NCBI GenBank assembly: GCA_963740355.1
Contig: CAVUDW010000002.1
Coordinates: 1,600,001-1,664,000, forward strand
Length of the DNA: 64,000 nt
Origin: an uncultured Gemmatimonadaceae bacterium
GTDB taxonomy: Bacteria > Gemmatimonadota > Gemmatimonadetes > Gemmatimonadales > Gemmatimonadaceae
Direction: 5' to 3'
The position numbers and the translations under genes were made by a program. Each line of letters starts with the position of its first letter. Positions within the stretch are counted from its first letter, which is position 1. The notes beneath the pieces are model-generated. The model saw only the letters and a program-made list of their open reading frames with translations, ran no database searches and was not told the DNA's origin. Positions 24,192 through 37,427 of this stretch are shown piece by piece.

Positions 24192-26987
24192 TCACGGCGC
24201 AATGCGCAGTGTCAATGCGAACTGCCGCGCAGGCAGGTAGCGGGGAACCATGCGCAGTTCGCTGCCGCCCGGCGTGACGCGCTGCAGACCAAAGTCGAGC
24301 ACATTGCGTCGGTCGAAGAGATTCTGCAGCGACGCACCGATCGCAACATGCGTCGCGCCGATCGCTCGCGTCCACGTGGCACCGAGATCGGCGTCCACGA
24401 TGGCCGGTCGTGCCATCGTACCCGGCGCATCGAGCGCCAGGTCGGTATTCGACTGCGAGGCGCCGAACAGGTCGTAGAATGTCTGCCGAAGTGCCCAGCT
24501 CCGTCCCCAGACGCCGCGCGTGCGCGCCGCGATCACCAATCCGTGCGCGGGCTCCACTTCGACGGCGAGAAGCGCGCGCAGTGGTTCGAGCCAGGGGGGC
24601 GGCTGCATCGTGCCGCCGAAACGCGAGGGATACGTGCGACGCGCCACGCCGCCGTCCACACTCAGCGCGAGTCGCGCGGGCCACGTGCGCACCCGGCCGT
24701 CTCGCAAGGCGCGCACCCCGGCACCGGCCGCATATCCTCTCGCCCGCTGTGCGTAGCGACTCGAAGACAACGGCGCCGCGGCCGCGGTGCTGTCGAAGAG
24801 CGCGCCGTAGTCAAACGCGAGCAGTACGGGCTGCCACTTCCCGTATAGTTCACCGCGCAGTTCCCATCCATTCCACGGGCGCGCTGTACCCTCGAATGCG
24901 GCATGCCATGCCTGCGGAACGCCGGTGGTGGAATTTGCCGGCAACCAGAAGCGAACACTTGGCACCAGTGCCACCGGCATCGTGGTTGCCACGTCGAACT
25001 GGTTGACGAACTGATGGTAGCCGCCCGCCGACAGTCGCCAGGCATACGTGCCGAGCGTCGAGTGATCACCATCTGCCCGCATCGCGAGGCGTGGTTCGGC
25101 ATAGCGACCACCCCCGGCGAGCGCAGTGATGCGAACACCAAGGTCGAGCCAGTGCCGACTGCCAAGCTGTCGCGTCGCTTCGCTCCACACTGTTCCACGC
25201 GATTCGATCATCGTGGCATCGAGCGGACGAAGCACCGTGTTGGCGAGACGCATGTGTGCCGACGTACGCGTTGCCTCGCCGCCCCAGCGCAGCTCCCAGT
25301 TTGCCGACCCGGCGCGCGTCCACTCCGCACTGAGCGCTGCCTCACGCAGCGTGTCCCCTTCGGCGCCAACCATGTTGCCACCGGCGCCACCGTCGAGCCG
25401 CAACCACCCATCATGACCGAGATCGTGCTGCAGGGCGCGAAGTTGAATCGTCTGCGTCACACGGGAACCAAGCAACATCGTGTGACGCCCCTGAATGGAC
25501 TGGGTGCGCCACGAATAAGCATCCCGTGACTGCAGGCCAGTTGCGACAGGGTCGCGCGCGAGCGCCTCAGTCGCAATGCCGTGGCGTCCGCGATACGCGG
25601 ATACGTCGAGACGCTGAAAGTCCCCGAATTCCGCTCGAACCGCCGCATGGTACTCCTGCAAGTCGATCCGCGTCTCGGCGGCAGGCACCTGAAGTGTGGA
25701 ACCGTCACGCCCTGCACTCGTCGACGTGCTGTTCGCTCCGGTCAGGCGCTCGATCAGCACCGCGTCAGGCGCATTCCAGTCCCGGAACGCACGCGAGAGC
25801 GAGGACGGAGCCGACCATGACCACAAGCCACCGCGCGCGGCAACCATCGAGCGCAGTCGCACGTCGCCCACCGTGAGTGGAGCGGTGATGCGTGCCGAGA
25901 CCGCCAGTGGATCCACCTCGACGACCGTGGATGGCCGCGTGGACGCCTGATCGCCGAAGGAGTGCGTGAGGTCGATGACGCCAGCGGTGAACGAACCTTC
26001 GCGTGCGCCGAAACCTGCCCGGCGCACGGTGACCTGCTCGATTGCCGGTGCTGCGACACTCCCCAGAAGCCCCGACAGCATGGAGGCATCGTAGAGTGGA
26101 ACGCCGTCCAGCCGCCACGGGAACTCGCCAACCTCGCCACCCTGCACGTGCAGGTCACCCGTACCATCACGACGCGATACGCCCAGCAGGACGGGGGCGC
26201 CCGGCAGGAAGAACGCCGGCGCGCGAAGCCAGAGGGACGCTGCCGAGTCGGCGAGGCGCTGGGCACCGAGTCCCGCGCTCACATCTGGCGCGATGCCGTT
26301 GATGATGATGGGTGTCGGCAGTGCGTCGAGCCGTTCCAATACGAATCTTCGGCGTTCCCGACCCGCCGGAATGAGTTCGAGCTGGCCGCGCCACGGGCGA
26401 TATCCGATTGCCTGAACGAACACCGCGTAGCGGCCGGGCAACAGGCGCTCGAACGCAAACTCTCCGGACGTGCCCGCGAATCGGGACGCGACAGATTCTG
26501 CGAGGCCGATGCGCGCCGATGGAACCGGCGACAGCGTTGCGGCGTCGAGCACGACTCCAGACAGACTTGCAAATGCCGCGGGCCGCTCTGCGCGATCGAC
26601 GACGACGTAGGTGCCTGACGACAGCCGGTACCAATCAAGCCCCGCCTCGCGCGTGATGCAGTCGAGCACGCGTTCCGCATTGGCATCACGGAGGCGGCAC
26701 GAGATGCGCGCCGGCGCCCGACGGAGCGAGTCCGCCGAGTGTGCGAGGTCACCACCCCAGACCAGGCTCATTCCGCTCAGCGTCGCCAGTTGTTCGAGTG
26801 CGTCAGTGACCTGCACTCCGACAAAGGCCACCGTCACGTTGCGGATCGGCTCCGTGCGTACAGCCTCGACTCGCGCAGGTGCCTGGGCACCGGTCGATCG
26901 GAGCGGCGCGAACAGCGACAACGACAGCAGCACTGCGCACATGCTGAGTCGACGCGCAGGTCTGCGACACTTCACACGAGCGTTCAC
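24192..26987 (-). CDS. TonB-dependent receptor/transducer with an N-terminal signalling domain and a carboxypeptidase-regulatory-like domain
   Basis: STN-like N-terminus, LSGVVLDAAT..PVPSA, plug LHVQGG..LDGVPLY..GVIDL, EPRL, C-terminal QNLFDRRN; GTGA overlap with the FecR gene. Confidence 0.85.
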   Translation of the reverse strand: MNARVKCRRPARRLSMCAVLLSLSLFAPLRSTGAQAPARVEAVRTEPIRNVTVAFVGVQVTDALEQLATLSGMSLVWGGDLAHSADSLRRAPARISCRLRDANAERVLDCITREAGLDWYRLSSGTYVVVDRAERPAAFASLSGVVLDAATLSPVPSARIGLAESVASRFAGTSGEFAFERLLPGRYAVFVQAIGYRPWRGQLELIPAGRERRRFVLERLDALPTPIIINGIAPDVSAGLGAQRLADSAASLWLRAPAFFLPGAPVLLGVSRRDGTGDLHVQGGEVGEFPWRLDGVPLYDASMLSGLLGSVAAPAIEQVTVRRAGFGAREGSFTAGVIDLTHSFGDQASTRPSTVVEVDPLAVSARITAPLTVGDVRLRSMVAARGGLWSWSAPSSLSRAFRDWNAPDAVLIERLTGANSTSTSAGRDGSTLQVPAAETRIDLQEYHAAVRAEFGDFQRLDVSAYRGRHGIATEALARDPVATGLQSRDAYSWRTQSIQGRHTMLLGSRVTQTIQLRALQHDLGHDGWLRLDGGAGGNMVGAEGDTLREAALSAEWTRAGSANWELRWGGEATRTSAHMRLANTVLRPLDATMIESRGTVWSEATRQLGSRHWLDLGVRITALAGGGRYAEPRLAMRADGDHSTLGTYAWRLSAGGYHQFVNQFDVATTMPVALVPSVRFWLPANSTTGVPQAWHAAFEGTARPWNGWELRGELYGKWQPVLLAFDYGALFDSTAAAAPLSSSRYAQRARGYAAGAGVRALRDGRVRTWPARLALSVDGGVARRTYPSRFGGTMQPPPWLEPLRALLAVEVEPAHGLVIAARTRGVWGRSWALRQTFYDLFGASQSNTDLALDAPGTMARPAIVDADLGATWTRAIGATHVAIGASLQNLFDRRNVLDFGLQRVTPGGSELRMVPRYLPARQFALTLRIAP

Positions 26988-28045
26988 TGCGGTTGACTGA
27001 CCGCCGAGACGCGGAACCCGCGGCTGGTTCGCGTGAACCGGAGCCCGCGTGCAGCGCTCAGATCGGCGAGTACACGTTCCAGCGAGGGGGCCTCCGCATA
27101 GAAAAATGTGACCGTTGACTCCGCAGCGACGCCGCGCTCGAGTACGATCTCGACGCCAGTGCGGCGCTCGAGATCGGCCAGGACGTCGCCCAGCGATTCA
27201 TTCACGGCAGACAGCCCCCCAGTGCGCCAACTGGTGGCCTGGGTGATGCTCGCCACCTTGCGTCGCTCGGCAGCGCCGCTGACACCGATCACCGCTGCGT
27301 CCCCCGCAGCCAGTGTGAGCGCGACCGCTGTGCCGACGCGCCCCTCCACGCTGACGCGGCCCTCCTCCACCAGAACGCGCGTTCCTGAACTGGCCGTCGC
27401 TGACCGAACGTCGAAGTGCGTGCCGAGCACTCGCACGACGGCGTCGCCGGTCATCACGGTGAATGGTCGTCCGTCGCGAGCGACATCAAAGAATGCCTCG
27501 CCTGAAAGCTGCACATCGCGCACGGGGAGCTGAGCGCCGAACCAGGCGCGGAAGCCTCGCGCCACGCGCAGCTCAGAGCCGGGTGCCAACGTCACGGTCG
27601 ATCCATCGACGAGCATCATGGTTTTCGGAGCTGCACCAGCAACGACGGCGTGTCGCTCCGGAACGGATTGCCATAGCCCGGCACCGCCAAGAAGTACGGC
27701 AAGCGTCGCGGCAACTCGCCACGCTGTCACACTGAACCGTCGAGCGAACGGGTGCGGTTCCCGGGTGTTCCGAAACAGGGCATTGGTGCGACGCGCAACG
27801 ACGCCCTCATCTGGCAGAACGGCAATCGGCGGCGCTTCCACGGTGAGGGAGCGCTCCGGGTCGTGGATACGCGCAGCCACGCGTTGCCAGGCGGCCTCAC
27901 GACGGGTGCGGCTCTCCGCATCGTCGGGGTGCGCTTCTGCCGACGGCAAGGCGTTCCAGAGCTCACCGAGCGCGGCTCCGTCGGTGCGTTGTTCAAGCGC
28001 TTCACGGAGCGCCGATGGAACCGGGGTGCGCGGAGAGTTCGTCAT
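26984..28045 (-). CDS. FecR-family anti-sigma factor
   Basis: TM followed by LVDGSTVTLAPGSEL, LSGEAFFDVA, VRVLGTHFDV, VEEGRV; ATGA overlap with the sigma gene. Confidence 0.93.
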   Translation of the reverse strand: MTNSPRTPVPSALREALEQRTDGAALGELWNALPSAEAHPDDAESRTRREAAWQRVAARIHDPERSLTVEAPPIAVLPDEGVVARRTNALFRNTREPHPFARRFSVTAWRVAATLAVLLGGAGLWQSVPERHAVVAGAAPKTMMLVDGSTVTLAPGSELRVARGFRAWFGAQLPVRDVQLSGEAFFDVARDGRPFTVMTGDAVVRVLGTHFDVRSATASSGTRVLVEEGRVSVEGRVGTAVALTLAAGDAAVIGVSGAAERRKVASITQATSWRTGGLSAVNESLGDVLADLERRTGVEIVLERGVAAESTVTFFYAEAPSLERVLADLSAARGLRFTRTSRGFRVSAVSQPQ

Positions 28046-28641
28046 GACAGCATCCAGGACAATGAGGCAACGAGGGCGCCGCTCAGTTGCTGACGCAGAA
28101 ATGCGAGGGCCGCGACGAGATGATTGTTCACCGTGCGCGGGGCGCATCCCATCACGTCGGCCACTTCATCGTGCGACAGTCCCTCGATGCGCGACAAGGT
28201 GATTGCTTCACGCTGCCGAGCGGGAAGGGCCGCGATGAGGCGTGTCAACTCTTCGCCCAGTTCGAGCGCCGCGAGATGCTCGCCTGGCGCGACCGCCGCC
28301 TGCGGGATCACGGCGGTCCCGACGAGGCTTACATCATCGAGCAGGCGCTGTCGCGTGCGATCGTCACGCAGATGGTTGAGCGAGAGGTTGCGCACGATGC
28401 GGTAGAGGTAGGCGCGGAGCGGTTGGTCGGGAGCGAGCGAGCTGCGGCGATCCCAGGTGCGGACGAACGCCTCCTGCACGAGATCTTCGGCCGCCGTGAC
28501 GTCTCGCACGATCCCCAGCGCGAAACGCACGAGGGGGTCGTAGAGGCCGTCGAAGAGGGTCCGGAAGGCGCGTTCGTCGCCCGCCTGAATCGGCCCGGCC
28601 AGTTGGCCGAAAGGATCGGGAGGCGCAGGTGGGGTCGTCAT
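28042..28641 (-). CDS. ECF RNA polymerase sigma-70 factor (FecI-like)
   Basis: GDERAFRTLF, AEDLVQEAF, YLYRIVRN, LPARQREAITL..EGLSHDEVA. Confidence 0.95.
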   Translation of the reverse strand: MTTPPAPPDPFGQLAGPIQAGDERAFRTLFDGLYDPLVRFALGIVRDVTAAEDLVQEAFVRTWDRRSSLAPDQPLRAYLYRIVRNLSLNHLRDDRTRQRLLDDVSLVGTAVIPQAAVAPGEHLAALELGEELTRLIAALPARQREAITLSRIEGLSHDEVADVMGCAPRTVNNHLVAALAFLRQQLSGALVASLSWMLS

Positions 28642-28783
28642 CACTCGTATGAACACGCAAGATGAGGGGCATGACCAGTGCTGGGGCGTTTGGGCATGCC
28701 CAGAAATCCCTCCATTCGGTCGAGAGCCGCAACCGCTTCCCTCGAAACTGGACAGCCATCAGCCCCGCCGCTACGCTTTCGGC

Positions 28784-30307
28784 ATGGTCACAAAATCAGC
28801 GGACTGCGGAGCTCGCCGGGCTCTTGTAGCGCGCCGATTGTCGGTTCTTCTGGCGGCCCTGCTTGCGGCGCTTCCGCATTCCGTGGCCAACGCGCAATCG
28901 CCGACCTCCCGCACCGGACAGGCTTCCGCGGTTACGGGCATCGTTTACGACAGCATCGCGCAACATCCGCTGGCGTCCGCACGCGTCGAACTGGTCAACG
29001 CGGACAACCCTGCCGCGCCTTCCAAGAGCATCGAGACCGATACGCTCGGCCGTTTTCGCTTCGATGATGTCGCACCGGGTCGGTACCTGATTGGATTCCT
29101 GCATCCGATCCTCGACTCGATCGGTGTCGAGCGCGCTCCACGTGCGTTGAAGGTCAATGGCAAGGAGCCGGCGATACGAATCGATCTCGCATTGCCGTCG
29201 CCGCAGTCGTTACGGACTGCCATCTGCGGCACCACCGCCGTCAAGGACTCGGCTTCACTGATCATCGGCGTGGTCCGCGACGCTGGCACTCGCGAGGCCG
29301 TACCGTCGTCGATCGTTGACGTGCGCTGGGCTGACTTCGTCCTCGGGTCTGGTGGGCTCAGGCGGAATACCGAGCACCGCACCTTCGTGACACAGGAGAC
29401 CGGCTGGTACTCACTCTGCGGCGCACCGGCCGGTGGCAGCATCGTGCTCTCGGCGTCGCATGATGCTGAGCGCACCGAGGCACTCGAACTCGAAATGCCA
29501 TCCGGTGGGTTCCTGCGCCGCGACCTCTACTTCGGTGTTGCGCACAGTGCCCAAGACGACAGCACCGTCGGTGGCAGGCCTGCGGTGGCCGACACTCTGA
29601 TTTCACCGGCAACGCCCCGTCGCACCGGTGATGGTCGCCTGAGTGGCGTCGTCGTGACAGCGGCAGGCGGGCGGACATTGCCTGGATCAAGCGTGACCAT
29701 CTCGAATGGCCCTCAGGCGCGCTCTGATGCGAACGGAGCCTTTTCCCTGAGCGGAATTCCGACCGGCACGCGGATGCTCGAGGTCCGGGCGGTGGGATAC
29801 TCTCCCTTGGTACTGCCCGTCGACGTCGTCGATGGCGCTCTGCCACTACGTCTCGCGCTGGTGTCGTTGAAGGCCGTCCTCGACACCGTGAAGGTGCGCG
29901 CGAATCTCCTCGGCAATCGTGACATGGAAGGCTTCGACAGGCGGCGCAAGCACTCCGGCGCGAACGGGCGCTTCATGACGACGGAGGATATCGCGCGGCG
30001 CAATCCGGTCGAGGCAGCTGACATCTTTCGATCGATGCCCGGCATCCTGATCGCACGGGACCCGGACTACAAGGAGATCTTGGCGCAGCGCAATTTCTTC
30101 ATCAATCTCTTCAACGGCGGTGGGCCATTCTGCCGTGTCTCGGTGTTCGTCAACGGCATTCGCCTGAATGATCCGACCGTCGACGCGCTCAACGGCTACC
30201 TCCGTGTGAACACGCTGCTTGGCATCGAGGTTTATTCGGGCGCCACCGCACCGCCTGAGTTCTCGAAGCGAGACGGGTGTGGGAGCGTCGTGATCTGGAC
30301 GAAGTGA
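28784..30307 (+). CDS. Exported protein with carboxypeptidase-regulatory-like domains and a C-terminal TonB plug-like domain (no barrel)
   Basis: VTGIVYDS..PLASARV, LSGVVVT..GSSVTI..SDANGAF..AVGY; C-terminal TTEDI..ADIFRSMPGI..VFVNG..IEVY..CGSVVIWTK then stop. Confidence 0.75.
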   Translation: MVTKSADCGARRALVARRLSVLLAALLAALPHSVANAQSPTSRTGQASAVTGIVYDSIAQHPLASARVELVNADNPAAPSKSIETDTLGRFRFDDVAPGRYLIGFLHPILDSIGVERAPRALKVNGKEPAIRIDLALPSPQSLRTAICGTTAVKDSASLIIGVVRDAGTREAVPSSIVDVRWADFVLGSGGLRRNTEHRTFVTQETGWYSLCGAPAGGSIVLSASHDAERTEALELEMPSGGFLRRDLYFGVAHSAQDDSTVGGRPAVADTLISPATPRRTGDGRLSGVVVTAAGGRTLPGSSVTISNGPQARSDANGAFSLSGIPTGTRMLEVRAVGYSPLVLPVDVVDGALPLRLALVSLKAVLDTVKVRANLLGNRDMEGFDRRRKHSGANGRFMTTEDIARRNPVEAADIFRSMPGILIARDPDYKEILAQRNFFINLFNGGGPFCRVSVFVNGIRLNDPTVDALNGYLRVNTLLGIEVYSGATAPPEFSKRDGCGSVVIWTK

Positions 30308-30321
30308 GCGGGCATTGCGCG

Positions 30322-30489
30322 TAATCCGGGGGCAATCCGGTGACAGGGGGCAATCCGGTGACAGTGCACTCAATTCGGGTGCAATCCTTTGGGTGCAATC
30401 CGGTGACAGTGCACTCAATTCTTTGAATTGAGTGCACTGTCACCGGATTGCTGTCACCGGATTGCGTGAGTGCACTGTCACCGGATTGC
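30322..30489. repeat. REPIN-like cluster 1
   Basis: Perfect 27-bp stem 30395-30451 GCAATCCGGTGACAGTGCACTCAATTC-TTT-reverse complement, with forward partial copies on the left and reverse partial copies on the right. Confidence 0.9.
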
Positions 30490-30623
30490 CGGGCGGTGCG
30501 GCGCCTGCGAGCCGCGGCAGGGCCGCCGCCGCCCTACGAGGGAACCGATTCTCAACGCGGCCGCCCATCCCGTGCGTAGCAGTCCACTTGCCCGGTCCTT
30601 TCCACCTTCGACCGTCTCCGCCC

Positions 30624-32702: not shown

Positions 32703-32738
32703 CACTCCATTCGGGCGGAAGTTCATTACGCACCAACG

Positions 32739-33848
32739 TCACCGCGTGTCGAGAAACGGCTGATCGATCTCGTTCATCACGCGGTGCACGTTGATGCCAG
32801 TCGCATTGGTCAACACGGCGGCGCCAAACCCGGCGTCGGGATAGAGCCGCATCAGGCCGTGAAAACCACCGCCTCCCCCTTCCTTGTAGAGCACGCGCTG
32901 GCCCGCGACCTGCGCAACGTGCCAGGCGAGCGTCATCGGCACGAGCGACCCGTTGCTCACGCGCTGCTGCTCGCATAGCAACCGACAGCCGTCCGGCGTC
33001 AGCAACACCGATGCCGGGCGCAGCTGGTCCTGCAGAAACGCCGCGACGCCGCGCAGAGAGCCAACGATGCCGCCGAATGCGTTGCCGTCGACATGGTGAT
33101 CGCGGATGTTAACCCAGCCGCCCGTAGTGTCGCCGATCAACGTGCGGTCGATGACGAAGGACTTGCACAGGTTCAGGAACGACCATCGCTCGAGGTAGCC
33201 GCGCGCGTGCCTTCCGGCGTCCGGGATGGCATATCCGAGGGCCGATGCGGGCGGCCCAAGGCGGTTGAAGACGTGCACGCGCATGTATTCAGCAAAGGTT
33301 TCTGTGCGCACTCGTTCCACGAGACGACCGAGTAGCCAGTATCCGATGTTCGAGTATGCATATCGGCGACCAGGCCGGTCCGATTGGGCGGAGTGCTTCG
33401 CGAGGATCTTTTCCAGCGCTGCACTGTCGTCGAAACCTGGATGCCTGGCCGCCGCGTGCACCCATCGCAGTGGAAGGGGATTCGGGATGCCGGCCGTGTG
33501 AGAGAGCACCTGCCGAATCGTGATGGCGCGATCGTACGGCCAGGGCGAGATGTATCGTGCCATCGACTCGTCGACCTGCACCGCGCCTGACTCTACTAGC
33601 TGCAGCACCGCCACCGCGGTGAATGTCTTCGACATCGAATACGTCATCAGCGTCGTCTCCATGTCCATCGGTCGCTGCCGACCGATGTCGGCCCACCCGG
33701 CGGCATGTTCGAAGAGCACGCGGTCCGCCGTCACGACGATGTACTGCAGACCCGGCGCTCTCCCTGCCGAGCACAGGTCGTCGAGCTGCTGCGCGAGACG
33801 CCGGTGCAGGGCAGGCGAGATATCGTCGGTGGCTGGTGTCATCGACAC
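32739..33848 (-). CDS. Serine hydrolase, beta-lactamase-related family
   Basis: SMSK (SxxK), LSHTAG, YSNIGY..LG; no signal peptide. Confidence 0.9.
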   Translation of the reverse strand: MSMTPATDDISPALHRRLAQQLDDLCSAGRAPGLQYIVVTADRVLFEHAAGWADIGRQRPMDMETTLMTYSMSKTFTAVAVLQLVESGAVQVDESMARYISPWPYDRAITIRQVLSHTAGIPNPLPLRWVHAAARHPGFDDSAALEKILAKHSAQSDRPGRRYAYSNIGYWLLGRLVERVRTETFAEYMRVHVFNRLGPPASALGYAIPDAGRHARGYLERWSFLNLCKSFVIDRTLIGDTTGGWVNIRDHHVDGNAFGGIVGSLRGVAAFLQDQLRPASVLLTPDGCRLLCEQQRVSNGSLVPMTLAWHVAQVAGQRVLYKEGGGGGFHGLMRLYPDAGFGAAVLTNATGINVHRVMNEIDQPFLDTR

Positions 33849-33854
33849 GACACG

Positions 33855-34328
33855 TCAGGCAGGCGCACCGCTGAGCACGCGGATGCCGTGACGAGCGCAC
33901 GCGTCCAGCAACGCGGCGATCTCCTCGTCCGAAGGCGGGTTTGCAGGAGGCGGTTCGTGGCGCCCGACATCGCGGAAGAAGTCACGCATTGCTCTCTCCA
34001 CGACGACCAGCATGCGGGCGGTGGTGCTTCCCGCGTTGCGGTAGTTGTGCGGCATCTCCGATGGCACGGTCACGACGGCTCCGGGGCCGACGACAGTTTC
34101 ACTGGCGCCCTCGTCACCGAATTGACCGAAGGTGATCTCACCGGCCACGACATGGAAGATTTCCGGTGATGTGTGCACGTGGGGCGGCGTTCCAGAGCCG
34201 CTCGGCACCTCCACGTCGAGAACGGCGAGATCGGTACCATCGAGCTCGCCCATGAAACGAACGCGGTCGCGTACGACCCAGACTGCCTCGGCGTCTGCCG
34301 CGCGAGTGATGTGCATGGTGCTTGGCAT
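33855..34328 (-). CDS. Cupin domain protein
   Basis: PPHVHTSPEIFHVVAG and GAVVTVPSEMPHNYRN cupin motifs; ends 6 nt before the serine hydrolase start. Confidence 0.9.
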   Translation of the reverse strand: MPSTMHITRAADAEAVWVVRDRVRFMGELDGTDLAVLDVEVPSGSGTPPHVHTSPEIFHVVAGEITFGQFGDEGASETVVGPGAVVTVPSEMPHNYRNAGSTTARMLVVVERAMRDFFRDVGRHEPPPANPPSDEEIAALLDACARHGIRVLSGAPA

Positions 34329-34615
34329 GTTAATCCCCCGACGACGTGTCGGACTGCGAGATGTTGGAGTGGTGCCTCGATCGGCGCGTGAGATGTGCAC
34401 ACGGTGTCGGTGCGGGCACTTATCACCCACGACGACACGCGCTCGGATCGAGACACGTTTGGCGGCGGGATGATTGCTTGTCCCGAACAGTGGCACGGCG
34501 TGCGGATCGCGAAAATAGGTTGAACGACCCATCTCACGTTCGACGATTGCATCCGGCCGGGCTGGCGCGCATTCCTCAGCTCGCGTTTTCCTTCGCGACG
34601 GAGGGCGACGACCTG

Positions 34616-36652
34616 CTACAGCGGCATGACCGCACGCTCCGGCGCACTGATCTCGACCATCAGTAGCGCCATCTCGAGCGCAGACACCCGCCGTGGCGCA
34701 CTCGTTGCTGCCGCTACCACCACGCGCCGCGCATCGGCGACCCATCGAAGGTCGCCAGTCAGCTGGTGACGCCGCAGCAACGCAAAAACACGAGGAAGCG
34801 GATTTCTCGGGAGACGCGCAGCCAATGCCGATCGCCTGAATTGCTCGTCGCCATACATGTCGTACGCGGTGGCCCAGAGCCACACGTCGCCCGCGCGATT
34901 CTCGCGCAGGGCCTCGATTCGCGCGACCAGGTCATCCCGCACTGCGACGGTGCCGCTGACGGCAAGCGTCAATGCGACTCGCACGAGCGTCGCTTCTGTC
35001 GAGCGAACGGCGTCGTAGCGTGCGGCTGATGCGTGCAGCAGGTGGTCGAGACGTTGCTCTGCCCACGATGCCAGCTCCAGGATGTTTGATGCCCGCGACG
35101 CGTCGCCGTGGAGCAGCCGCGCGGCCGCGAGAAGCGCCACGGCCGCTTCGGGGCCGTCACGGAGCTTGTCTGCCGTCGTCATGAGGCGGGTGATGGCGAG
35201 TGTCTCTGCACGCACATCCGATCGCGCACGCGCAACCTGCACCGCAGTCGCAAGACTCCGCCAGCCCCGCTGTGCGCCAGCGATCAGGATGTCGGCAGCC
35301 GCCAGAAGCTCGGCGTCCTCGAGCGCCACAGCGGCGCGAAGCGCGAACCATGCCTGGGCGGCCGGATCAGTGTTTCGTGCCAGCGCGCGCACGTCAGCGA
35401 CGCTCTCGTCGAACGCACGTTGTGTTGCGGGTGGCCAGGGCGTACTCGTGTCCGTCGGCAGGACGGCCGACGAGAACGCCTCCGCCATCACCGAGACATC
35501 CAGGAATCGGTGCGCTGGCTCCTTGCTCAGTGCGCGTCTGAGAACGGCCTCGCCGGTTGGCCAAGCCGGGATCCCGCGCGCGGCGAAGGGCAGCATGGGC
35601 CGACAGACGATGTTCCTCAACAACTCATCGTGGATGGCGGGCGCGTTGATGGGAGGCAATCCCGTCAGCAACAGGTAGCCGAGCACTGCGATCGCGTACT
35701 GCTCCGATTTCGGCGTGGCTGCAGGAGGCAGTTCGCCAGCCAGCAATGCAGCGGCCATCTGCGGATCGTGGAACTGTGGAATGCCCGAACGCAGGGGATC
35801 GACCACGTCGTGTGCCGCAGTCGACCTCGCATTCCCGAAATCCAGCAGCACGACGCGACCATCGTCGCGCACGAGACAGTTGCCCGGATGGATGTCACCA
35901 TGCAGCACGCCCATGTGATGCAGTCGACCGTAGGCAGCGAACAGGTCGCTCACGATCTTCTGCAATCGGCGTGGGTCGCGCGCCGCACGTGCCTGTTGTG
36001 CTGCCGTGGCGATGGAGACGCCGTCACACCACTCCATGGCCACATACACCCGCCCATTCACCGATCCGTGATGCAGCAGACGCGGGCTGTCGTCGCCGCC
36101 GAGGCGGTCGAGCACACGCGCCTCGTGCGCCATCATGGCGATGATGCCGGGCCGATCATCGCGCGCGATCTTCAGCGCTACCGACACCGCGTCGGGACCG
36201 CGCGCCCGATAGACCTCCGAATCCTCGAGCGAGCGGATCAGCGCCTCGATCTCGAACCCGTCGAACTCCTGACCGGCAGCGAGGCTTGGCGCGGTGGCGT
36301 TCGCGTCAGGCGATCCGGCGGGCACGAGGATCCGTGTCTCGACGAGCGTCGCAATGGCATCGAACGCCAGCTCCAGCATTTCGTTGGGTTCCTGATCGTG
36401 CGCACGCGAAAATCGAAGGACGGCGTCAGTGATCAGACTGGGTGCGCGAAACTCACCGATCAGATCGGCGAGTGGACCCGGCACGAGCCGTGTCGTCACC
36501 CGAAAGCCCGGACGGGTGATGACGGCCTGCCCGACATCCACTGGGCCGATCCGCGTGCGCAGTCGACCCGATAGTTCCGATACCGCCAGAAACCTCGCAT
36601 CTGGCGGCAGGATGAAGCGTGTCGTGGCGACGTCTGGTGGCGCATTCGTCAT
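34616..36652 (-). CDS. RRE-like domain + Ser/Thr protein kinase + degenerate LanC-like helical domain
   Basis: Kinase motifs VALK, HEARVL, HGDIHPGN, LLDFG; PqqD-like N-terminus ending ATLVETRILVP; C-terminal FALLRRHQLTGDLRWVADARR resembles LanC helices; ATGA overlap with the upstream gene. Confidence 0.75.
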   Translation of the reverse strand: MTNAPPDVATTRFILPPDARFLAVSELSGRLRTRIGPVDVGQAVITRPGFRVTTRLVPGPLADLIGEFRAPSLITDAVLRFSRAHDQEPNEMLELAFDAIATLVETRILVPAGSPDANATAPSLAAGQEFDGFEIEALIRSLEDSEVYRARGPDAVSVALKIARDDRPGIIAMMAHEARVLDRLGGDDSPRLLHHGSVNGRVYVAMEWCDGVSIATAAQQARAARDPRRLQKIVSDLFAAYGRLHHMGVLHGDIHPGNCLVRDDGRVVLLDFGNARSTAAHDVVDPLRSGIPQFHDPQMAAALLAGELPPAATPKSEQYAIAVLGYLLLTGLPPINAPAIHDELLRNIVCRPMLPFAARGIPAWPTGEAVLRRALSKEPAHRFLDVSVMAEAFSSAVLPTDTSTPWPPATQRAFDESVADVRALARNTDPAAQAWFALRAAVALEDAELLAAADILIAGAQRGWRSLATAVQVARARSDVRAETLAITRLMTTADKLRDGPEAAVALLAAARLLHGDASRASNILELASWAEQRLDHLLHASAARYDAVRSTEATLVRVALTLAVSGTVAVRDDLVARIEALRENRAGDVWLWATAYDMYGDEQFRRSALAARLPRNPLPRVFALLRRHQLTGDLRWVADARRVVVAAATSAPRRVSALEMALLMVEISAPERAVMPL

Positions 36653-37407
36653 GCGAGACACCCCTCCACGAATGCGTCGGGGTTCGCGTGCCAACGCACC
36701 GGATCGACACCCATCGCGCGCATGTCGGCGAGCACGGCGTTGGCGACATTACCCAACGGTGATGCGCGGTGCGTGGTGAGGCTGGCCGCGAGGCGCTTCG
36801 TGATCCATGATCGCCAGCTGACAGGTGTTTCGCTGGCGGGTGGATCGACGCCAGCGGAGAGGAGCCCGTTGCCGGCCAGCCCGGTGGTGAAGGGCACGCC
36901 TTGCGCGGGGCATCCCAGCAGCACTCGATCGAGCTCACGTGCAACCGTGTCGAGGTGGTCGTGCCCATCGAAGTAGGCGACGAGTTTGTCTGGGCGCAGC
37001 AAGCCTTCGATGCCGCGTCCCACCTTGAACGATCGCACGTTGCTTCGTGCGAGCACGTCTACGATGCGCGGAAACGCCTCCGCGAGTGCCTCCGGCCTCG
37101 GACTGACGTAGAGCTTGCAGGCCGGCTCGAACTGTAGCTGCAGCGGTAGTCGCGCGAAGGAATACCAGCCAGCGAATGAGGTGGCTTCGTACTCTGCCTC
37201 GAGTCTACGTCGTGCGGCGCCGCCGACAGTCAGGCCGAGCACGGCCATCGGGTCGTCGTCAGGCCCGAAGTCGCGCTCAATGGCTGGACCGCGCGGCAAC
37301 GTGCCGAATCGGTACAGCCACTGGGCGACGACGCCTGAATCCATCGACGGCACGCTGGCTGCCATTCGAAGCGCAGCCAGCGACAGCTGCTCGATACGCT
37401 CAGGCAT
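36649..37407 (-). CDS. HopA1/LanY-like putative phosphoSer/Thr lyase
   Basis: CKLYVSP, SFKVG, RPDKLVAYF, VPFT..G, SWRSWI..RLA resemble the HopA1-type / lanthipeptide lyase motif order. Confidence 0.6.
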   Translation of the reverse strand: MPERIEQLSLAALRMAASVPSMDSGVVAQWLYRFGTLPRGPAIERDFGPDDDPMAVLGLTVGGAARRRLEAEYEATSFAGWYSFARLPLQLQFEPACKLYVSPRPEALAEAFPRIVDVLARSNVRSFKVGRGIEGLLRPDKLVAYFDGHDHLDTVARELDRVLLGCPAQGVPFTTGLAGNGLLSAGVDPPASETPVSWRSWITKRLAASLTTHRASPLGNVANAVLADMRAMGVDPVRWHANPDAFVEGCLA

Positions 37408-37427
37408 GCGGCATCTCGGTAAAGGCG

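Follow-up and report, generated by a model that had tools for sequence, protein, structure and literature searches.

A kinase-fused LanC-like domain stripped of its catalytic loops, encoded beside a LanY/HopA1-like lyase in an uncultured Gemmatimonadaceae bacterium

The kinase, lyase-like and 192-aa genes of the cassette

A stretch of 64,000 nucleotides from an uncultured Gemmatimonadaceae bacterium (GenBank assembly GCA_963740355.1, contig CAVUDW010000002.1, positions 1,600,001 to 1,664,000; the whole stretch is called the window below) was analyzed. The window carries a cassette of three genes on its reverse strand, encoding a kinase protein of 678 amino acids (aa), a lyase-like protein of 252 aa and a protein of 192 aa. 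The kinase protein ends in a domain of about 245 residues, and both the predicted structure and the comparison with its homologues supported the view that this domain is derived from the LanC fold, with the catalytic loops removed. The coordinates of the genes and domains are listed in Table 1.

Table 1. Genes and domains of the cassette, with their positions in the window
Feature	Position	Strand	Basis or remark
Kinase gene, 678-aa protein: N-terminal domain, Ser/Thr-type kinase and minimal LanC-like domain	34616..36652	-	stop codon 34616-34618
3' part of the kinase ORF (aa 398-678 and stop codon), the feature of the earlier note	34616-35460	-	
Minimal LanC-fold domain, aa 434-678, first helix AWFALRAA, without zinc ligands	34619..35353	-	AF2 model, structure searches, hhalign
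Linker and one extra helix, aa 393-433, at the junction of kinase and LanC-like domain	35354..35476	-	AF2 model
Kinase domain, about aa 130-392	35477..36265	-	Pfam and alignment A1
N-terminal domain, aa 1-125	36278..36652	-	alignments A1 and A6
Stand-alone phosphoSer/Thr-lyase-like protein (LanY/HopA1-like), 252 aa	36649..37407	-	AF2 fold, Foldseek, VIA-align
192-aa substrate-like protein	37428..38006	-	alignment A5 (18 sequences, 53-81% identity)

The open reading frame (ORF) caller placed the kinase gene at 34616..36694, giving a protein of 692 aa with a TTG start. By sequence comparison, translation almost certainly begins at the ATG at 36652, because the database copy P0002 has 678 aa, the homologues align from that methionine, and the ATG overlaps the TGA stop codon of the upstream lyase-like gene. 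The overlap has the form ATGA, and the two genes are translationally coupled. A promoter and terminator scan of 34300-38400 revealed no sigma-70-like site and a single terminator-like site on the opposite strand, where 2.0 were expected by chance.

The kinase domain exceeded the Pfam cut-offs of three families, with scores of 50.9 bits for Pkinase, 48.2 bits for ABC1 and 38.8 bits for APH. The catalytic set K161, E177, D253, N258 and D271-F272-G273 was invariant in alignment A1, which consisted of 32 sequences 46-66% identical to the kinase protein of the window. The N-terminal domain was the best conserved module and was common to all three architectures of the family described below (alignments A1 and A6); the Pfam and PDB-sequence searches returned no family match for its 125 aa. 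A PqqD-like recognition element of the kind used for RiPPs (peptides made by the ribosome and modified after translation) was also considered for this domain and rejected. The hhalign comparison of A6 with 12 PqqD domains from related genomes gave an E-value of 0.23 and a probability of 0.3%, and the controls, with E-values of 0.09-0.49, were equally good. Furthermore, the cassette is not read here as a known defence system: PADLOC matched the kinase to generic kinase models only (PD-T4-6, mad6 and MkoA), and the two partner proteins were unmatched.

A locus scan of species-representative genomes yielded 65 loci. The lyase-like gene adjoined the kinase homologue in 56 of these and the 192-aa gene was found in 25, while the five other neighbours in the window that were tested occurred in none (0/65). 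The AlphaFold2 (AF2) model of the lyase-like protein had a pLDDT of 90.7. Its best Foldseek match was LxmY of the lexapeptide dehydratase LxmKY (9dk1_B, E 4.7e-7), and HopA1 was found at E 7.5e-6; further matches were the lyase domains of SalKC, CuvL, ThurKC and PneKC, and then OspF/SpvC. In the VIA-align search, which is independent of Foldseek and covered 48,161 PDB-representative chains, the Z-scores were 15.2 for HopA1, 15.0 for CuvL, 14.3 for LxmY, 12.9 for ThurKC, 12.0 for SalKC and 9.6 for SpvC, after which they fell to 7.4. At the sequence level, the 252-aa protein matched no Pfam family (HopA1 included) and no NCBIfam family, and the PDB sequence-profile search gave nothing significant. 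Three of its 34 relatives weakly matched Pfam HopA1, and three matched RamC_N. The invariant residues of the protein include K98, K128, R138 and D140, whose spacing, we assume, resembles that of the catalytic Lys/Lys/Arg set of OspF-type lyases. The cassette is predicted from the model to encode a split dehydratase of the class V kind, that is, a kinase and a LanY-type lyase, since a LanY/HopA1-like lyase fold is encoded beside the kinase.

The 192-aa protein has an N-terminal strand-like motif, D-F-L-I-K-D-L, and a C-terminal amphipathic helix. It contains two copies of a motif with a Gly-rich, an L-P-x-P-D and a [ST]-P-rich part, the consensus sequences of which are GGRGGTWLPGPDDETPPSPISPI and GGGSVGLPNPDCGGTSLETIPPTLTPVV, and its S/T-containing stretches TPPSPISP and TSLETIPPTLTP are putative dehydration sites. 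An earlier note on this DNA, which was made from the sequence alone, had pointed to a substrate with only one Cys. The adjacent 192-aa protein fits this description: C121 is its sole Cys and lies in the segment P-D/E-C-G-G-T-S-L-E-T-I-P-P-T-L-T-P. The protein is internally duplicated, as the single motif of the actinobacterial proteins aligned both to aa ~23-47 and to aa ~112-137, and the second copy alone carries the C-G-G insertion bearing the Cys. In all 23 assessable loci of the short form of the kinase protein (see below), the 192-aa gene lies upstream of the lyase gene. Searches of Pfam, NCBIfam and PADLOC assigned the 192-aa protein to no family, the PDB profile search gave nothing significant, and the ESM Atlas gave no usable match. 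By gene order and sequence features, the protein is probably the substrate of the kinase and the lyase. The neighbourhood of the 24 short-form loci showed no further conserved gene, including any for a transporter, a protease or immunity.

Fold, lost loops and relatives of the C-terminal domain

The earlier note had described the 3' part of the kinase ORF as a helical LanC-like region with neither Cys nor LanC motifs, and both parts of this description were borne out. Cys is absent from the last 281 aa, the final one of the kinase protein being residue 350. This stretch has 4 His and lacks the G..HG, WC.G and C[HC]G motifs, and the four helix strings quoted in the earlier note were located at aa 434, 592, 623 and 662. 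The AF2 model of aa 393-678, which was based on a 22-sequence alignment, contained 14 helices and had a mean pLDDT of 90.1 and a pTM of 0.87. Residues 1-15 of this construct were of low or mixed confidence, and the helix of residues 16-30 preceded the region aligning with LanC. The superposition on LanC proteins revealed the expected alpha/alpha toroid similarity. GCR2 was the first of the VIA-align matches (Z 20.5, 277 of 286 residues aligned), followed by MadC (16.0), LicM2 (15.4) and NisC (15.2); the best non-LanC toroid reached 13.2, and ThurKC and SalKC reached 12.5 and 12.0. With Foldseek, only LanCL2 (6wq1, TM 0.68) and LanCL1 were obtained at E<=0.001; GCR2 and CuvL came next, and TPR proteins appeared at E>0.07. 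The sequence identity in the structural alignments to LanC proteins was 8-15%.

The relationship was also found with sequence profiles. The short C-terminus (alignment A2) matched 15 LanC domains of longer homologues (A3) in hhalign with 99.6% and E 1.1e-24 over 249 columns. The HMM searches were reciprocal, the short and the long profile each finding the other form at the same position of the protein. The Pfam family LANC_like (PF05147) gave no match to the kinase protein of the window at E<=1, and hence none at its gathering score, and the PDB sequence-profile search with the C-terminal domain gave nothing significant. The domain has the alpha/alpha toroid of LANC_like proteins, with two layers of seven helices each, and homology to bona fide LanC domains, and its derivation from a LanC toroid is supported, by model and profiles, as a resemblance well beyond chance.

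The earlier note had further supposed an in-frame deletion of the loops with retention of the helices, and the alignment with full-length homologues agreed with it. Compared with the long-form locus L031, 99 residues were missing in eight gaps, with no insertions, and the gaps took out every catalytic motif. The first two gaps, after aa 463 and 465, remove 24 and 4 residues with no motif noted. The gap after aa 501 removes 4 residues, DLTL, with a conserved Asp; that after aa 521 removes 1 residue and no motif; and that after aa 552 removes 10 residues ending in HGIAHG (GxxHG). The largest gap, 33 residues after aa 586, ends in GWCNGP (WCxG). After aa 615, 12 residues ending in FDLC are missing, and the remaining C-C-G aligns to P-R-N, while the last gap, after aa 657, takes 11 residues with no motif noted. 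The LanC zinc ligands (WCxG and C[HC]G) are therefore absent. The same holds for the acid/base residues, which are Asp141 and His212 in the NisC numbering as given in PMC10604976: the short form has gaps where the long form has its DLTL and GIAHG segments. Helices 1-2 and the C-terminal P-E-x-A-x-x-P tail were conserved in both forms. Moreover, the short form has invariant residues of its own, W591/W593 and R627/H629/Q630, on the helices that come after the lost ligand loops.

Among the longer relatives, Pfam LANC_like covered nearly the whole model in 9 of the 10 proteins scanned (E 1e-15 to 1.4e-30). GxxHG, WCxG and C[HC]G were present at canonical spacing in 15 of 17 proteins examined, and the other two belonged to the LanC-less clade described below. 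Intermediate states were also observed. The 745-aa protein P0122 had shorter loops and retained the motifs. In P0134 (729 aa) and P0146 (740 aa) the motifs were gone and longer loops remained, and P0150 (682 aa) kept CCG alone. Since P0134, P0146 and P0150 show partial motif loss, loss of the catalytic apparatus apparently recurred independently in the superfamily, as judged from these sequences.

The kinase proteins of the 65 loci had three architectures. The short form, of about 680 aa, comprised the window and L001-L024; the long form, of about 790-800 aa, had an intact LanC domain (L037 was classed here, its LanC match being cut by the contig end); and the LanC-less form was actinobacterial, with no match to either the short or the long C-terminal profile in those loci. 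In the LanC-less loci L039, L041-L047, L049 and L051-L056 (Actinomycetota), the N-terminal domain and kinase were accompanied by a lyase-like gene and a Cys-free upstream protein; this architecture is possibly a pure dehydration or phosphorylation system. When the C-terminal region alone was used as the query, 89 homologues were obtained, nearly all of 670-720 aa. The identity of the domain was 35-52% over 21 loci, and the reading frame was open. An exhaustive profile search of 1.84 billion representatives gave 221 proteins at the E<=1e-3 threshold, of which 33 also passed E<=1e-30.

A quick IQ-TREE phylogeny was built from the N-terminal and kinase part (54 rows, midpoint root); it omits L050, which is cut by a contig end, and the loci that matched aa 1-400 over fewer than 300 residues, such as L018, L026, L040 and L048. 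All 24 short-form rows formed one clade with a support of 97 in the Shimodaira-Hasegawa-like approximate likelihood ratio test (SH-aLRT), and the long-form locus L025 was its sister (99). The 15 LanC-less rows formed a separate clade (100). On this phylogeny, the domain stripping is an old single event, which marks out a clade with at least 24 loci from several phyla and is not peculiar to the copy in the window. The taxonomy within the short-form clade was mixed (Chloroflexota, Acidobacteriota, Verrucomicrobiota and several classes of Pseudomonadota), which points to horizontal transfer. In the LanC-less form, L045, from a metagenome-assembled genome labelled Brevundimonas, nested in a Cellulomonas clade, a position due to recent transfer or to a binning error.

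The content of Cys in the upstream protein followed the state of the LanC domain, a relation that the earlier note had proposed to test, and the relation was graded (2-21, 1-2 and 0 Cys). L011, with no upstream DNA, and L026, which is fragmented, were left out of this survey. In the short form, the Cys of the motif P-[DEN]-C-[GS]-G-[TS]-S was present in all 23 loci with an intact upstream gene, and the proteins had 1-2 Cys. The same protein with the same Cys, and 2 Cys in total, was found in L025, the long-form sister of the short clade. The other long-form loci (L027, L028, L030-L038, L057 and L058) encoded proteins with a strand motif, a Cys/Ser/Thr-rich core and a C-terminal helix, with 2-21 Cys. 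Finally, the upstream proteins of the LanC-less loci were remotely homologous (E 5e-8 to 6e-2), had one motif only, such as LPADDTTLYTIPTPITPIV, and were free of Cys in 15 of 15 cases.

The upstream ORFs of the long form were conspicuous in themselves. That of L030 has 21 Cys in repeated S-x-x-C-P units, and a Streptomyces precursor of the long form (L032) has the D-C-G-G-x-[ST] motif. The strand motif F-x-[FI]-[KR]-D-L was found in L030:4522-5220, L032:4458-4796, L035:4204-4764, L036:4257-4814, L057:4300-4761 and others, and these ORFs end in a conserved coiled-coil-like helix. Judged by sequence, they resemble a family of precursors whose C-terminal "follower" is long, and no description of such a family was found.

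The neutral decay that the earlier note had named as the counter-case was not observed. By the Nei-Gojobori method on 10 pairs, dN/dS was 0.23-0.42 for the C-terminal domain, which corresponds to purifying selection. The corresponding ratios of the kinase and N-terminal domains were 0.11-0.19 and 0.05-0.23, respectively.

Of 31 related genomes searched, only that of the window itself had the cassette, which was found in 0 of 18 genomes of the same genus. The region 32704-39450, which holds a beta-lactamase-family gene, a cupin gene, the cassette and a bicupin gene, had no DNA match in four same-genus genomes except for a repeat of about 50 bases at 38413-38473. On this comparison, the region is accessory and probably acquired. 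The flanking S9 peptidase gene matched same-genus genomes at 82-85%. The gene at 39463-40215 had a 73-75% match in 2 of the 4 genomes, in one of which (G016) it lay about 130 kb from the peptidase gene. In the 5.45-Mb genome of the window (94.5% complete), the long-form profile matched this kinase gene only, so that no second LanC-like gene was obtained. A search of this genome with Pfam LANC_like also gave nothing, although it was a weak one, with the control found in 0 of 14 genomes.

Other features of the window lie outside the cassette. The repeat at 38413-38473 belongs to a palindromic family, the core of which is GGCAATCCGGTGACAGTGCAC together with its complement. This copy, which lies some 350-400 bases upstream of the first gene of the cassette, can be drawn as a perfect hairpin whose arms have 29 nt and whose loop has 3 nt. 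Several nested copies are clustered at 30328-30490. The family is a dispersed, REP- or MITE-like one, because it accounts for most of the 71 matches in the same-genus genome G009. The reverse-strand ORFs 28042-28656, 26984-28147 and 24192-26987 presumably encode an ECF sigma factor, a FecR-like anti-sigma protein and a large outer-membrane receptor, respectively. The forward-strand ORF 28649-30307 matched CarboxypepD_reg above the cut-off, and its TonB Plug score of 21.5 bits was just under the cut-off of 23.9 bits.

Possible roles of the retained domain

We read aa 434-678 of the kinase protein as a relic of a zinc-dependent LanC domain, which was stripped of its catalytic parts and retained for structural reasons, and give this reading a probability of about 50%. 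The ancestor would have resembled the relatives of about 790 aa found today, with an N-terminal domain, a kinase and an intact LanC domain, and with a separate LanY/HopA1-like lyase gene adjacent. One lineage would then have lost the eight loop segments of 99 residues in all, and with them the Asp and His motifs of acid/base catalysis and each of the three zinc ligands, while the 14 helices stayed. A substrate dwindling to one Cys may have relaxed the selection on zinc catalysis, after which the active-site loops were lost. The most likely role of the remnant would be that of a "palm" without catalytic activity in a split dehydratase. Packing against the kinase is probable, because helices 1-2 and the P-E-x-A-x-x-P tail are conserved in both forms; holding of the substrate loop is also possible. 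A precedent has been described for ThurKC, in which the zinc-less cyclase domain is the "palm" and dehydration needs it, even when it is supplied in trans (PMC10604976).

In the following route, the 192-aa protein as substrate, the dehydration chemistry, the domain as scaffold and the formation of a ring are all inferred. First, the kinase would phosphorylate Thr/Ser in the S/T-P-rich motifs of the 192-aa protein. Second, the stand-alone lyase would eliminate the phosphate, leaving dehydrobutyrine or dehydroalanine (Dhb/Dha). Third, zinc-free addition of the single Cys to a dehydro residue close by might follow, on its own or with the remnant as template. The sequences suggest that Cys chemistry, probably one thioether, is still used, because the Cys is invariant in 23 of 23 intact short-form substrates and absent in 15 of 15 LanC-less ones.

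The earlier note had started from the premise that LanC-type cyclases need a zinc site. As a general rule this premise fails, for the class III LanKC domains are reported to cyclise without it (PMC10604976). The term "cyclase-dead", under which the domain had been described, is accordingly kept here as plausible. In the earlier note the product was taken as possibly a dehydro- or phospho-protein and not a lanthipeptide, a reading that has to be weighed against the invariant Cys. Several points weigh against a purely structural relic. The zinc-free cyclisation in class III is itself one of them. The pattern of the invariant Cys also fits a domain acting on Cys at least equally well. The LanC-less clade has the kinase-lyase pair without such a domain, and therefore a scaffold is not generally required. 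Furthermore, the polarity of the change, loop loss rather than gain, is drawn mainly from LanC being an old and widespread fold, and the tree was quick and midpoint-rooted. The dN/dS of the C-terminal domain was the highest of the three domains, so that selection is most relaxed there, and the substrate role of the 192-aa protein is taken from gene order, design and motif content only. A complex prediction for the C-terminal domain and the 192-aa protein scored 0.00 in two runs, in which controls were not folded, and weighs on neither side of the question of binding.

It is possible, with a chance clearly below even, that the remnant is still a cyclase. It would then be a minimal, metal-independent LanC fold that binds the P-D-C-G-G-T-S loop and adds Cys121 to a neighbouring Dhb/Dha, forming one (methyl)lanthionine ring; such a fold would be similar to class III LanKC domains and smaller by some 100 residues. 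Besides the invariance of the Cys in the short form, its presence in L025 and its absence in the LanC-less form, the recurrence of the D-C-G-G-x-[ST] motif in the long-form precursor of L032 favours this. The same applies to the purifying selection on the domain and to its own invariant residues, W591/W593 and R627/H629/Q630, after the deleted ligand loops. In addition, ThurKC is described as cyclising without zinc ligands (PMC10604976). However, the cyclase domain of ThurKC is of full size, residues 491-862 (PMC10604976), whereas the domain studied here has lost, besides the zinc ligands, 99 loop residues of the active-site face and both acid/base motifs, that of Asp and that of His. The dN/dS above that of the kinase and N-terminal domains also speaks against a retained activity, and the independent motif loss in several related lineages suggests that catalysis is dispensable.

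A tentative extension, which we consider rather doubtful as a whole, is a hitherto undescribed kind of lanthionine and dehydro-amino-acid system working at the level of a folded protein. The kinase with its minimal LanC domain and the LanY-like lyase in trans would install Dhb/Dha and one zinc-independent thioether in a folded protein of about 190 aa, with no leader cleavage or export. If this were true, the three architectures, with 2-21, 1 and 0 Cys, would be a natural series of stepwise cyclase loss, and no functional LanC fold would be smaller than the 245-residue remnant.

It is improbable that the remnant has acquired a new function unrelated to lanthionine, such as docking, regulation or oligomerisation, with the 192-aa protein as a partner or regulator. 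Such a role would agree with the lack of a conserved transporter, protease or immunity gene in the 24 short-form loci, unlike ordinary lanthipeptide clusters, with the accessory nature of the cassette, present in 1 of 31 related genomes, and with the unusual length and conservation of the 192-aa protein for a precursor (53-81% identity). On the other hand, the design of this protein, with its strand motif, S/T/C-rich core and C-terminal helix, matches that of the Cys-rich long-form precursors, the kinase and lyase retain catalytic-type residues, and the Cys count of the substrate tracks the state of the LanC domain. That the region is a non-LanC, TPR-like helical repeat or the decaying pseudogene tail of one genome, as the empty Pfam and PDB-profile searches and the TPR proteins lower in the Foldseek list might have implied, is refuted by the hhalign match to intact LanC at the same position in homologues, the VIA-align Z-score of 20.5 and an open frame conserved over 21 loci with dN/dS <0.45.

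Whether it serves as a structural relic or still closes a ring, the domain bears on a wider question. Zinc-free LanC-like domains are already known in class III, and they raise the question of how such a domain works without zinc and why it is retained. The present domain is an extreme natural case, in which the barrel is cut to 14 helices and all catalytic loops are gone, yet it is conserved across several phyla. It has close relatives with an intact domain or with none, and the Cys content of the substrate shifts alongside. The family thus makes testable what the LanC fold adds beyond zinc chemistry, be it scaffolding and kinase activation or the templating of ring closure. It also bears on how multi-domain lanthipeptide synthetases are assembled or dismantled in evolution.

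Comparison with known lanthipeptide systems

A full-text literature search outside subscription journals and supplements gave no kinase-LanC fusion with a LanY-like lyase in trans and no loop-stripped LanC domain. Within the same scope, no description was found of the architecture of N-terminal domain, kinase and LanC domain with the lyase in trans and with long precursors ending in a helix. Goto et al. (2010) put forward stand-alone kinases, lyases and thiol-alkylating enzymes as the origin of LanL (PMC2843593). The kinase-LanC family with a lyase in trans looks like an alternative assembly of these parts.

The closest solved folds were those of the eukaryotic LanC-like proteins GCR2 (3t33), LanCL1 (3e6u) and LanCL2 (6wq1) and of the class I cyclases NisC (2g0d) and MadC (8byk). 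These proteins have about 400 residues with the catalytic loops, whereas the remnant is without those motifs.

Compared with class V LanK/LanY systems (LxmK-LxmY, 9dk1, and CaoK-CaoY), the cassette shares the stand-alone HopA1-like lyase beside a kinase, which was established by fold. CaoK/CaoY and LxmK/LxmY are described as acting as heterodimers (PMC9486802, PMC12141560). In the accounts of PMC9486802 and PMC11186320, the class V kinases are of the APH type, and class V clusters are without known class I-IV synthase genes. It was different with the kinase of the window, which scored best as Pkinase and bears a LanC-derived domain and an extra N-terminal domain. For the same reason, the cassette departs from a class V definition in which the pathway has no LanC-type domain.

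For class IV LanL (CuvL, 8cav/8car), the kinase of the window was closest to the LanL kinase (NF038150, E 1.7e-19, positions 189-496 of 851), and its lyase-like protein matched the CuvL lyase domain, as given above (Z 15.0). In addition, the long-form relatives matched LanL over the kinase and the cyclase with the zinc motifs kept. They did not match the lyase part of LanL. The protein of the window differs in having no zinc site, an unfused lyase and another N-terminal domain of about 125 aa at the place of the lyase. The NF038150 scores were 69.7 bits for the window, over the kinase part only, and 117-144 bits for the long forms, against a cut-off of 650 bits.

The class III LanKC enzymes (ThurKC, 8sam, and SalKC, 9ugq) also have a LanC fold C-terminal to a Ser/Thr-type kinase and without zinc ligands. 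However, the domain of ThurKC is full-size (491-862), whereas the remnant of the window has about 245 residues, with 99 loop residues fewer than its long-form relatives. The lyase of the window is a separate gene and not an N-terminal domain, so that the system is not a single polypeptide. NF038151 gave 45.9 bits against a cut-off of 575 bits, in the kinase part only, and the putative substrate is a 192-aa protein with 1 Cys instead of a short peptide. On the present comparison, the remnant is not a member of class III, yet in its manner of working, zinc-less and fused to a kinase, it is most like the cyclase domain of a class III LanKC.

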